Part shown: piece by piece, positions 45,001-51,000 of the stretch
Numbering within the stretch: the first letter of the stretch is position 1
Layout of the letters: the number at the start of each line of letters is the position of its first letter
Source of the DNA: a virus
Lineage: Duplodnaviria; Caudoviricetes
DNA: 64,000 nt
Virus record (IMG/VR): IMGVR_UViG_3300006155_000002
Reading direction: 5' to 3' (one strand)
Position numbers: made by a program

Positions 45001-48000
45001 TGGTGTGACATACTACATCTCTTTCTTCCCGACTTCTACGGATGGCGCATCAACTATCAATTCGAATAATCGGACAACTGGTGTTCCAAATCGTCTGACA
45101 ATCACAACCGCGCCTACTCAAAGCAACACTCTTACCTACAATAAAGCGGCACAGAATCCGACTTGGTCTAACTACGATACAGCAAAAATGACCATTGGCG
45201 GTGAGACTGTTGGCACAAATGCTGGAACGTATACAGCTACATTCACTCCGACCGATGACTATGTTTGGTCTGGTGATACGGAGCCGAAGGCCAAGAACGT
45301 ATCCTGGACCATCGGGAAAGCTACTGGCACTCTGACGCTTACCCCTGCATCCATCGTACTGGATAAAACCACGACGAGTGCCACTTTTACCATCTCTGGT
45401 GACTTCGATGGTTCTTATACTGTCGTGTCACAAAATACAAGCATTGCAACTGTGGCGCTGGTAAGTGGTAAGACATATCGTGTCAGCAGCGTAAACAGCA
45501 CCACAGGCAGCACCACTATCAAGGTGACCTGTTCTGGCGGCAGCAATTATTCTGTGCCCTCCGAGAAGTCTGTAAGTGTGACAGCTAAGTTCGTTACAAT
45601 CTATGGCGCTTCTTGGGATGGATCAAGCACCACTAAGTGGTCTCGTACCGACGCATCTGCAAGCTTTACAGATCCTGTACCTGCTGTAAGCAATGGAACA
45701 GGCAGTTCTCCGTTTGACAATTTGGCGCCGTGGTCCGAGATGAAGCGCACGTCAGATTCTGTTGGTGGCGAGCTTGTTTCTATTCCAAAGTTCTACTACA
45801 AGTGGACGAAGAGCGGAAACTCGTTGAAGCTCCAGCTTGCAGATGGACAGACGGATGGCTTCAATGTGTCTCCGGCACACGCAGACAGAGGAGATGGAAG
45901 GGGTGAGCGAGATGTAGTTTATGTTGGAAGGTATCATTGTGCAAGCGGGTATAAGTCTACTACTGGCGTTGCACAGCAAGTTAGTATCACACGTTCTGCA
46001 GCGCGGACAGGTATTCACAATTTGGGTACAACCTTTTGGCAGTTCGACTATGCTATGCGTGTAACCATTCAGATGCTTTATCTGGTGGAGTTTGCTGATT
46101 GGGATTCGCAAACAAAGATCGGCTATGGCTGTTCTTCTGGTGGTTCAAAGCTCAACAACGGACAGACTGATGCGATGCAGTATCATACTGGTACAACAGC
46201 AGCAAATCGTACCACTTATGGTTTTACGCAGTATCGCTACATTGAAGGTCTGTGGGACAACGTGTACGACTGGATGGATGGTTGCTATTACAATAGCAGC
46301 GGCATGAACATTATCATGAATCCCAACAATTTCTCGGATTCTGCCAATGGCACCCTGATTGGTAAGCCGTCCAATGGCTGGCCATCCGCTATTGCTGTGG
46401 CTACCGCAAGCGGTCTTGAGTGGGCAATCTACCCGACAGCAGCGAGTGGCTCTGCTACAACCTACGTCGCGGATAGCTGGAACTATAACGCTTCCAGCCC
46501 GTGCCTGTTCTGTGGTGGCTACTACAACCAGTACACCTACTACGGGTTGTTCTACGTGAACTACAGCGGCACGAGCAACACGATCGCGGTCATCGGCTGC
46601 CGCCTCCAAAAACTCCCCTAAGAGAGGGGTTTGGGGAGAACCGCAGTTCTCCCCATCCAGTAGCCAAGTAAACAATGTAAAAGGGGACGTGCGCAAGTAC
46701 GTCCCCTAAATCGAATCATTCCTATTTTTAGTAAAGCAAACAAGAAGCGCATTTTATGTGCGCTACGGGATTGCCTACGCAGCAGTCGCTGGTTCATTTA
46801 TTGTGCCGTCGCGGATAACTGGAACTATAACGCTTCCAACCCGTGCCTGCACTGTGGGGGTAACTACAACCAGAACCAGAACCACGGGTTGTTCTACGTG
46901 AACTACAACAGTGCGTCGAACACGAACTCGAACATCGGCTGCCGCATCCTTGTTTTTCGCTGGGCCTCACCAGAGGTTCCGGGCGAGTGCGTGGTTAGCA
47001 TTATTTTTGGTAGATCGGGCTCCTCACCCTTTCTATAAGGGCTGTGGTGCGTATTTCGCACTACACCCTTGGCGCGGGCAATCGCGTGCCCCTTGGCAAA
47101 GATTAACCGATAGGACATGGGTTAGTACCCTCTGAGAAACCGGAGCGTGGGAAAGCTCATGAGGTTACAAGGAGGTACTGTAACAACCTATGAAACGTAC
47201 AAAAAATCTATACGAGAAACTCATTTCACACGACAACCTGATGCTTGCCCTCGTGGAGGTAAACACGAGTCACAGGTGGCTGCCGAAACACAGGCCAAAC
47301 AAAACGGTCGCATGGATTGAACAGGATATGGAGGCGCGTGTAGAGGATCTGCGCCATATCATCGAGCAGATCGTATATCATAAGCGCCAGCTCTCCAAGC
47401 CGAAGCAGAAGCAGCGGTATGATAAGAGCGCCGGAAAATGGCGTATCATCAACGAACCAAAGCTGTGGCCGGATCAATATATACACCATGCGCTTGTGCA
47501 GGTTCTCCAACCAACCATGATGCGTGGAATGGACAGGCATTGCTGTGGTAGTATCCGCAATCGTGGCATTCACTACGGAAAGAAGAAAATTGAGAAGTGG
47601 ATGGACACGGATGTTAGAGGGACCAAATACTGCGAAGAACTCGACATCCATCATTTCTACGACAGCATTGATCCAGGGTTCATTTTGATACGGTTGCGCC
47701 ACCTCATCAAAGATTGGCGCGTATTGAAGGTATGCGAGGAAGTCCTACGGTACGGCGTACTGATTGGCCTATACACCTCGCAGTGGTTCGCAAATACGCT
47801 TCTACAGCCACTCGACCAGCTCATCAGAGACAGCGGATTCTGCACCCACTATCTCAGATACATGGACAATTTCACAATCTTTGGAAGTAACAAAAGGAAA
47901 CTGCACAGGCTGAGAAAGCTAATTGAAGAATGGCTTGCGGGAGTCAATCTCTCTTTGAAAGACAACTGGCAGGTGTTCCCCACAAGGAGCCGTATGCCAT

Positions 48001-51000
48001 GCGCACTCGGCTACAGGTTCGGCAGAAGGTTCACATTGCTCAAGAAGCGCAATCTGTTCCGTCTAAAACGGAAGCTGAACGAGTATTACCGCCGCAAAAG
48101 GCAGCACAGAAAAATATCCGCCAGAATGGCGACTGGGCTGATTTCAAGATTGGGTCAGCTCAAACATTGCAACAATAAAAACATCTATGAAAAAATCTAT
48201 CACGGCAAGGTTCAAAAGGAACTGAAACAAGTGATTCGAAATCATATGCGAGAGGAGAGATTAACGTGGAGTATGTATTTGGAGCAAATGGCTACAGCGG
48301 CGTAGAAACTCTCCGTACCAAAGGGAGCGAGCACACCGATTTTGAGGGGTTCGCGGAGGTGGTACAGGAATACGATGACAGCACCATCACAGACACCTTC
48401 CACGTCATCCAGAAGACAAAATTCGATGAGGATGCGGAAGGCAACTGCTATGATTGGTATGAAATCGACCATCACAACCGCATCGTTGATAAGACGAAGC
48501 GCATGAAAGCGAATATGGCTGTGCTGGTCGCATCCATTTTGGAGGGCTAAGATATGGACAAACAGTATATTTCACAGCTTTATCACGATGGCGGACTGAC
48601 CAATATGGGTGTGCTCCAGGCTATTACTATGGGCTGGATCACCACAGAGGACGCCGTTGATATCCTCGGTTTAGATAATTCTCTCAGCGTTGTCCGGTCT
48701 GCAAAGCTGCTGGAAATCTCCAAAGCCTGCAATACGGTGATTGTATCCGGTGTTGACGTTCAGATCGGCGACCGTACAGATCACTTCAATCTGGCACTGG
48801 AAGACCAGAGCAATATCAACAACCTGTTCCGCGTGGTAGAGTTGGGCGGCACCGCATTCCCCTATCAGGCGGATGATGGAACCTGTACGGTCTACTCCGC
48901 TATGGAGATTGCACAAATCTACATTGCCGCACAAACCCTTATCACAACACAGACTTCATACCACAACGCGCTGAAAGCATACGTCCTGTCTCTTAAAGAT
49001 GAGGATACTATCTCCGCTGTGGTATACGGAATGGATCTGCCGGAGCCCTATGCTTCTGAACTGACCGGTAAGCTGACCGTAGCACAGGAGCAGATGGCGG
49101 CAATCGTTGGGAGGTTGAGCGCAAATGCGGCTTCCGCAACTGATTGATCTTCTGATTGATATCTGCCGGCGGCAGGCGGATGTGATTCGAGCACAGGCAT
49201 TTGCACTGAGTCAATATGATGCTGCTGTCTGCGAAGACGAAGCAGAGTGGGCCCGGCGCAAGCTGGACGAAATCTGTGATGATTGGGAGCCTGATGCGCC
49301 ATGGTAGTCAATAAGAACGGAAAGTGGGTTCTGAGCGTACTCCTTTGGGTATGGACGGGGACGTTCTACTTCTTCACTGAGGTTATCTGGAAGACAGCAA
49401 ACGGGAGACCGGAAACAATCAGTTGGACGATGCTTTTGCTTGCTATTTTCCTTGCCGTACCTCTGGAGCGATTCGGAGCAGAACTTCCATGGAATATGCC
49501 TCTGCTCTTACAATCTGTTATTTGTACCTGTGCTATCACAGCGGCGGAGTTCTGTGCGGGTTGTGTTCTGAACTTATGGCTTGGCCTTGGTGTCTGGGAT
49601 TACTCTCACATGCCCGGGAACATTCTCGGTCAAATCTGCCCGCAATTTATCTGCGTGTGGTTTCTTCTGTCAACTTTTGCAATCGTTATGCTCGACTGGA
49701 TGAGGTACAGTGTTGAGGGTGGAGAGCGACCACACTACAGATTTGTCTGAACATCATATAACGAGGGCTGTGTCTATTGAGACATTGCCCTCTATCTAAA
49801 AACCGAAGGGAGGGATTTCAGTGAGCAGGAAAACGAACCGCTGTTTGACGGCGCCACCTGAGAAAATCGCACAGATCAACCCGGAAAATATCAGACTGAT
49901 GAATGATTTCATTATGTATCTGCGCTCCGTGGACAGGTCTGAACAGACTATCGTGGTTTACAAGAATGATTTGCTGATTTTCTTCTGCTGGGTCGTAGAC
50001 AACGCAAACAACAAGTTCTTCACTGATATTTCCAAGCGCGACATCATGGCATTCCAAAATTATGCGCTGGGACAGGGGTGCTCTGCGAATCGTGTCCGGC
50101 ACCTGAAGGCCGCGCTTTCTTCACTGTCAAACCTTATCACAAATATTCTGGACGATGAATATCCAGACTATCGGCCGGTTGTCCGGAAGATCGAGAACCC
50201 AGTCAATGAGCCTGTACGCAAAAAGACCGTTCTGACTAAAGAGCAAATTCAGGGCTGTCTTGACTATCTGGTCGAACATAAAAAGTATGAGCAGGCGTGT
50301 TTCCTTGCACTGGCGGCGTATTCGGGCCGGCGAAAATCTGAGCTGGGTCGATTCAAAGTCGTGTATTTCTCTGATGAAAATATCATCTACGGTTCTCTGT
50401 ATAAGACGCCGGAGAAAATCAAAACCAAAGGACGCGGCAAGAGCGGAAAGATGCTGACATGCTATGTGCTCGCAAAACCCTTTAAGCCATACCTCGACCT
50501 GTGGATGGAAGAGCGCAAGCGGCGCGGCATTGACAGCGAATGGCTGTTTACGGACGTACACGACAAAACGCAGCCCATTACAGTATCCCGCATGAACAGC
50601 TTCGCCCGTACATTTTCCAGTATCATTGGTGAGGATGTATATCTGCACTCTCTTCGGCACTTTATGACGAGTGAACTGGCGAGAGCAAACATCCCGGATT
50701 CTGTGATCCAGTCTTTGATTGGATGGGACTCTGCGGATATGGTCGGTGTGTATAAGGACATTGACGCAGATGAAGAGTTCGGCAAATACTTCAAGGACGG
50801 CGAAATTGTCGCACAAAAACAGGCAGGTCTTGGAGACTTGTAATATGTTGCTTAGCCATAGGCGGGGTGGGCTGCGGCCCTCCCCTGCACCCCTCCCATA
50901 GGGGTTTGAAGGAGGCGGCGACAGATAAGGATAAAAGGACGGGAGTCGGCTGTGCTGGCTCCCTTTGTATATAAAACCATCGTTTTACCGAGGAGGTGGT

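Follow-up and report, generated by a model that had tools for sequence, protein, structure and literature searches.

Textbooks and the literature on diversity-generating retroelements (DGRs) regard both aspartates of the YxDD box in motif C of reverse transcriptases (RTs) as invariant, and substitution of the second one impairs the retroviral enzymes. The question of whether a DGR can do without it is raised by a cassette in the IMG/VR virus record IMGVR_UViG_3300006155_000002 (Duplodnaviria; Caudoviricetes), of which a stretch of 64,000 nucleotides, here called the window, was analysed. The motif C of its RT reads YMDN, and an earlier note on this DNA had offered two readings, i.e., a single GAT>AAT mutation that inactivated the enzyme, consistent with drift between the template repeat (TR) and the variable region (VR) of the cassette, or the hallmark of an active divergent clade in which the altered active site goes with the loss of Avd and a different error spectrum. 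The explanation favored here, to which a probability of roughly 0.85 is assigned as a whole, is that the RT is functional and belongs to a clade that naturally carries Asn, that the element works much like a canonical DGR, and that the cassette of the window is a recent recombinant.

An RT clade with asparagine in motif C

The RT gene is read from the ATG at 47190 through 371 open codons to a stop at 48303-48305, and in this frame codons 224-227 are TAC ATG GAC AAT, i.e., Y224, M225, D226 and N227. Motif A reads ELDIHHFYD, with D152 as the catalytic Asp, and the DGR signature is GVLIGLYTSQWFAN, in which the SQ is kept and GVLIGL stands for the usual GxPIGN; residues 192-198, IGLYTSQ, agree with the (I/L)GxxxSQ required of DGR-clade RTs. 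The full triad of catalytic aspartates is not present, D152 and D226 being kept and the third position being N227. The earlier note had described an RT that is intact apart from YMDN and GVLIGL, with its first catalytic Asp in LDIHHF and its SQ motif in place, and this description was borne out. The Pfam profile RVT_1 (PF00078) matched residues 79-258 with 50.6 bits (cut-off 29.6), and the closest solved structure by sequence was bRT of the Bordetella DGR (8ub7, E-value 6.8e-17). In the alignment to bRT, GVLIGLYTSQ falls on GIPIGSLTSQ and RYMDNF on RYMDDI, which puts N227 at the place of the second catalytic Asp. An AlphaFold model of the RT, with a predicted local distance difference test (pLDDT) score of 84.6, had bRT as its top fold match (8ub7_A, template modelling score 0.71 by target length).

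It had been considered that close homologues might all carry YMDD, or that the base might be a sequencing error, and an alignment of homologues and the ratio of nonsynonymous to synonymous changes (dN/dS) had been proposed as a check. Asn was found instead in all 120 of the 120 best homologues, as Y[MVI]DN, over identities from 100% down to 54%. All 80 IMG/VR phage loci have YMDN, as do contigs encoding a near-identical protein (91 RT-bearing loci including the window), and all 50 loci with a readable motif C, out of 53 in bacterial genomes, have xxDN; the latter come mostly from Oscillospiraceae and other Clostridia, cultured strains among them. Members of the clade in named strains are L206 of Butyricicoccus pullicaecorum DSM 23266, whose TR/VR mismatches are 17/17 at adenines, L183 of Bacterium D16-76 and L219 of Lawsonibacter sp. 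LCP25S3_E2. Of 110 different nucleotide contexts, 81 encode the Asn by AAC and 29 by AAT. The dN/dS of the RT, computed with a relative that shares 90% of the protein and 81% of the DNA sequence, is 0.04, and purifying selection is strong over the whole enzyme, the IGxxxSQ motif included. A sequencing error is excluded, since 23 contigs, assembled from several independent samples, carry an RT whose one difference is E23D. Judged by this distribution, Asn at the second motif C position is an old and conserved trait of a large clade, not a private null allele, and an inactivating GAT>AAT mutation in the window is refuted by an Asn that is fixed across that clade under purifying selection.

Adenine-specific variation and the junction in the window

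The TR was defined beforehand as whichever repeat copy lies closer to the RT. On this definition, 967 mismatches were counted over 57 distinct TR/VR pairs next to a YMDN RT, and 912 of them are at TR adenines, although adenines make up only about a quarter of the TR. The same is seen in 42 pairs from bacterial genomes (621/649), and the BPP-1 control, run with the same script, gave 18/22. In four groups of contigs that have an identical TR and different VRs, the variable columns lie at TR adenines in 33/34, 24/24, 29/29 and 27/27 cases; such variation under an identical TR indicates that diversification was recent. Closest to the window are the contigs L001, L002, L004 and L005, whose TR is identical to that of the window, whose RT differs by the one residue E23D, and whose VR mismatches are 21/21 at adenines. 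One RT each was found in five of the five related phage records searched, four of them ~100% complete and one 87%. An independent lineage with YVDN (L095) has 14 of its 16 TR/VR mismatches at adenines, and in another independent lineage, with YMDN (L093), no TR/VR was found within 6 kb. The adenine-specific patterns, together with the single RT per record, point to repeated and recent adenine-specific rewriting beside YMDN enzymes, and speak for the active divergent clade that was the second reading of the earlier note.

Some members of the clade depart further from the usual motifs. A subclade on genome contigs (L215-L217, L220 and L224) reads QMDN, the Tyr of YxDD being lost, and has SA for the DGR-defining SQ; its TR/VR mismatches are still adenine-specific, from 12/12 to 20/20. 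L210 has NMDN at motif C. On the genome contigs L199, L219 and L231 there are in-frame stops in the tblastn match to the RT, so that decayed RT copies do occur now and then in the YMDN clade.

The window itself has 25 mismatches between TR and VR, 13 at TR adenines and 12 elsewhere; it fails the adenine-only pattern of TR-to-VR differences, which is abnormal for a DGR. The TR is the only other copy of the VR within the window, where no further TR-like copy and no second RT were found. The window was aligned to the sister contig L001 in 100-nt bins, and as far as 46607, over the tail-fibre gene, identity was 60-87% per bin; from 46608 on, it rose to 99-100% over the TR, the RT and the genes that follow (to ~49500) and was still at least 93% until ~51200; the tail-fibre gene is ~75% identical to the target gene of L001. 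The step at 46607/46608 indicates that the tail-fibre gene and the TR-RT module come from different parents, so that the VR of the window was written by another TR, and the 12 non-adenine mismatches arise because the breakpoint lies at the 3′ end of the VR. The drift that had been taken as a sign of inactivation is thereby traced to a recombination junction and not to decay. Among the differences off adenines are whole-codon and synonymous ones (TCG/AGC for Ser, GGG/GGT for Gly), a pattern typical of ordinary divergence. Under an adenine-only model no source TR for the window VR was found among ~60 collected loci, the best leaving 8 non-adenine mismatches. By its mismatches, the VR of the window has apparently not been overwritten since the exchange.

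The breakpoint between the two phage lineages falls exactly at the 3′ boundary of the VR, the putative homing-signal region, which suggests that the conserved VR end and the TR-RT module form an exchange hotspot or a portable unit. Among relatives, the TR-RT module is present or absent between the tail fibre and a 94-aa gene (see below). A second cassette at L040:3381-3824, with an RT 57% identical to that of the window, has 13 of 19 TR/VR mismatches at bases other than adenine and may be another case of module exchange.

Partner residues in motif A, the error spectrum and the alternatives

An exhaustive search returned 4,356 homologues, with 150 among the matches listed, and 105 full-length representatives were compared at the position two residues before the catalytic Asp of motif A (-2). 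Lys stands there in 70 representatives with DD and none with DN, Glu in none with DD and 17 with DN, and another residue in 15 and 3, respectively. Lys is thus found in 70/85 YxDD representatives and in 71/80 YxDD loci, and in no DN sequence among 120 proteins, 91 loci, 50 genome loci and 20 representatives. Most DN sequences have Glu or Gln at -2. In one DN subclade the stretch reads Ser/Cys/Thr-Gly-Asp, mostly accompanied by Glu at -4, a position that faces the same way on the strand. Exceptions among the YxDD enzymes include Glu at -2 in one YVDD locus and Tyr in the YMDD sister of the main clade. Well-supported branches of the trees that were built force at least five switches between D and N in DGR RTs, and loss of the Lys accompanies loss of the Asp in five of five independent contrasts. 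In the structure of bRT determined by cryo-electron microscopy, a putative Mg2+ lies 2.2 and 2.3 Å from D138 and D215 (bioRxiv 10.1101/2023.10.23.563531). These two residues align with D152 and D226 of the window RT. The second Asp of the DGR RT family may accordingly be pictured in a supporting role, paired with the Lys, the pair being exchangeable for Asn plus Glu or Gln. The notion that Glu at -2 is a relocated carboxylate as a universal rule was dropped, given the Ser/Cys/Thr subclade and the 4/50 genome loci with neither residue.

The spectrum of the adenine changes differs between groups. In the YMDN main clade there were 600 changes from A to G, 297 from A to T and 28 from A to C in IMG/VR (L011-L090), an A-to-C share of 3%, and 373, 224 and 24 in genomes (4%). 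For 68 pairs from YxDD neighbours (L101-L180), counting only pairs at least 80% adenine-specific, the numbers were 483, 243 and 193, an A-to-C share of 21%. In the independent YVDN lineage (L095), 7 of 14 adenine changes are to C, and the A-to-C deficit is therefore no general effect of Asn; it could stem from selection on a shared target or from changes specific to the clade, e.g., the loss of the Pro in GxPxG. Of the different error spectrum that had been predicted, the scarcity of A-to-C changes in the main clade is what stands, whereas adenine specificity is, by the mismatches counted, fully retained in the YMDN clade and the YVDN lineage lacks the deficit. A tentative and rather doubtful proposal is that the change from Asp to Asn is a repeatedly evolved remodelling of the active site which alters the hold on the metal and tunes nucleotide selection, as in the 7-fold lower A-to-C share; if true, it would provide a natural handle on the mutational spectrum and fidelity of DGRs.

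Under the favored explanation, the cassette of the window would be a minimal Avd-less phage DGR consisting of a tail-fibre VR, a TR and an RT, the last belonging to a large clade that resides in prophages of gut Oscillospiraceae and further Clostridia and whose motif C naturally carries Asn for the second Asp. The TR RNA would be reverse-transcribed with misincorporation at adenines, and the cDNA would take the place of the VR in the C-terminal part of the tail-fibre gene. Catalysis would proceed on D152 of motif A and D226, the first Asp of motif C, as counterparts of the Mg2+ ligands of bRT, and N227 would be tolerated through remodelled surroundings, the -2 Lys being always replaced, usually by Glu or Gln, or else by Ser, Cys or Thr, in which case a Glu usually stands at -4. 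The window would be a recent recombinant that took its tail fibre and VR from one lineage and its TR-RT-downstream module from another, and its VR, written by a different TR, would not have been overwritten afterwards. Several points weigh against this explanation: the activity of YMDN RTs is read from sequence patterns only; the window, with 13/25 mismatches at adenines, has a copy without sign of homing since the recombination; in 4/50 genome loci neither -2 nor -4 is Glu or Gln, and no compensating residue is universal; and the sign test on the five contrasts gives p = 0.0625, the floor for five pairs.

The mismatches off adenines (12/25) are also what a private loss of function would predict, in which a GAT>AAT transition killed the RT and left a decaying cassette, and such a loss would be in keeping with the effect of second-Asp substitutions on retroviral RTs. 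This account is given almost no credence, since Asn is present in every homologue down to ~45% identity, both Asn codons are in use at a dN/dS of 0.04, the breakpoint at 46607/46608 accounts for the non-adenine mismatches, and sisters that share the TR, and the RT but for one residue, show 21/21 mismatches at adenines; identities of 45-90% exclude the homologues being assembly copies of one sequence. The RT of the entire clade might instead be dead or repurposed, with the adenine-specific VR changes made by another RT in trans or left as relics of an ancestral YxDD enzyme. What speaks for this is that sequence is the only ground for the activity of any YxDN RT, and that the count of single RTs covers phage records and not host genomes. 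It is nonetheless very unlikely, given VRs that differ between phages still sharing an identical TR, five phage records (four ~100% complete) with one RT each, strong purifying selection on the entire RT including IGxxxSQ, and the recurrence of the pattern in the independent YVDN lineage (14/16 at adenines).

Two further accounts concern the window more narrowly. The RT may be sound and only the cassette stalled, the TR and VR having become too different after the module swap for integration of the cDNA, so that the VR is frozen. The TR and VR are 83% identical and mismatched to within 21 nt of the 3′ end, the 12 non-adenine mismatches have not been erased by homing, and no collected TR fits the VR (the best leaving 8 non-adenine mismatches), all of which would suit a stalled element; the last 21 nt of the VR, however, match the TR save for one A/C difference that is found also in active sister VRs, identity to the sister contig is 99-100% from 46608 on, also over the hairpins, and a recent recombination suffices to explain the missing homing. 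A stall is accordingly held to be unlikely. That Asn broadens the error spectrum to other bases, and so produced the C, G and T mismatches of the window, has in its favor the mismatch pattern of the window itself. It is exceedingly improbable in the face of ~100 other YMDN cassettes with 94-96% of mismatches at adenines, of the synonymous and whole-codon changes among the non-adenine differences, and of a breakpoint that alone is a sufficient cause.

Cassette layout, neighbouring genes and known relatives

The layout of the cassette is that of a DGR (Table 1), with the TR 240 nt upstream of the RT and the VR in the final part of the gene for the 755-aa tail protein. The VR is GC-rich toward its 3′ end, GGCTGCCGCCTCC, and two predicted hairpins follow it (DNA fold -15.6 kcal/mol, z -3.4).

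Table 1. Features of the DGR cassette and its surroundings; positions refer to the window.
Feature	Position	Strand	Evidence
DGR target gene, 755-aa tail-fibre/tail protein, VR at C-terminus	44354..46621	+	PHROG phrog_5302 (tail protein), E-value 8e-40
Variable region (VR), 143 nt	46465..46607	+	Direct repeat of TR, 83% identical
Recombination breakpoint, VR 3′ end	46607..46608	.	Identity step vs contig L001
Two GC-rich hairpins just past VR and stop codon (target-site hairpin or terminator)	46615..46655	+	DNA fold
Template repeat (TR), AAC-codon-rich, non-coding	46807..46949	+	Direct repeat of VR
DGR reverse transcriptase, 371 aa, intact	47190..48305	+	Open reading frame (ORF) call, Pfam, PDB sequence match, AlphaFold model
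Motif A E150-L-D152, catalytic Asp, with Glu in place of the Lys of YxDD DGR RTs	47637..47645	+	
DGR-specific IGxxxSQ motif, IGLYTSQ, with GVL ahead of it instead of GxP	47763..47783	+	
Motif C Y224-M-D226-N227 (TAC ATG GAC AAT)	47859..47870	+	
94-aa ORF overlapping RT end, starts ~36 nt before RT stop	48266-48550	+	

The profile PF05635 missed the Avd of BPP-1, and PF22296, the family of that Avd, was added with BPP-1 as the positive control. Neither family had a match in nine phage records of the YMDN clade or in full Pfam scans of the window ORFs around the cassette, and Avd was likewise not found in YxDD relatives, i.e., Butyrivibrio phage Arawn and five IMG/VR records; the VR-TR-RT spacing of the YxDD relatives is as tight as in the YMDN cassettes. 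Since Avd is missing in the YxDD neighbours too, its absence is a character of the wider group, unconnected with Asn. The absence itself had been correctly anticipated for the clade, but not its coupling to the altered active site.

The 94-aa ORF keeps its overlap with the end of the RT in 89/91 loci, down to 31% identity, and in 15/80 relatives, those that have no TR and RT, it lies directly 3′ of the tail-fibre gene. Its predicted fold is a beta-sheet with one C-terminal helix and no PDB match, and the atlas gave the weak leads XkdW/YomQ_N/DUF2977. As a substitute for Avd it was rejected, because the fold is not Avd-like and the ORF follows the tail fibre without an RT in those 15 relatives; it looks like a gene of the tail module, with the TR-RT inserted between it and the tail fibre. 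Further downstream, a tyrosine recombinase (Phage_integrase, E-value 1e-14) is encoded at 49821-50843 (+), between a CmpB-like membrane protein and an endolysin, an unusual spot in the tail/lysis module; it lies inside the block that is 93-100% identical to L001.

Among known systems, the DGR of BPP-1 (mtd-VR / avd / TR / brt; 8ub7-8ubf) resembles the window in the order of target VR, TR and RT beside a tail-fibre gene, in the GC-rich 3′ end of the VR and in a hairpin past it (predicted in the window), and the YMDN clade in its IGxxxSQ and adenine-specific TR-to-VR differences. Its bRT has the same fold as the window RT and is the best PDB match by both sequence and structure, although the two are only ~22% identical: bRT has K136-S-D138 with YMDD and GIPIG, whereas the window RT has E150-L-D152 with YMDN and GVLIG, and is 43 residues longer at the C-terminus. 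BPP-1 also has an Avd (PF22296), unlike the nine related phage records and the scanned window ORFs around the cassette. The nearest neighbours are the Avd-less YxDD phage DGRs of Bacillota (Butyrivibrio phage Arawn gp17-TR-gp18 and IMG/VR L101-L180; 34-40% identity), which share with the YMDN clade the compact order of target, TR and RT, the lack of Avd and the adenine-specific mismatches, but retain KxD, Y[MV]DD and the Pro of GLPxG, and have an A-to-C share of 21% as compared with 3% in the YMDN main clade. Natural xDN motifs C are known from active right-hand polymerases, namely the GDN of Mononegavirales L proteins and the ADN of birnavirus VP1; these RNA-dependent RNA polymerases are a different polymerase class, with homology to RTs limited to the palm fold. 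In a 2012 survey of 155 DGR RTs, both YxDD aspartates were 100% conserved (PMC3521204). A literature search for YxDN motifs and for DGRs with asparagine found no paper describing YxDN RTs. What appears to be new is the mutual exclusion of a -2 Lys and Asn, together with several independent D/N switches, as well as the recombination account of the non-adenine mismatches, the independence of Avd-lessness from Asn, and the A-to-C deficit.

An active YxDN clade, as the sequence patterns suggest, would mean that the second Asp is dispensable for reverse transcription and adenine mutagenesis in the DGR RT family, and the replacement of Lys by Glu or Gln at -2 of motif A would be a natural partner change and a clue to how Asn is tolerated. 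Module exchange at the VR boundary can yield non-adenine TR/VR mismatches, decay not being required. Hundreds of working gut-phage DGRs would be misjudged by annotation pipelines and surveys in which YxDD is required or YxDN counts as dead, and the natural YxDN variants would offer test cases for engineering DGR-based targeted mutagenesis.

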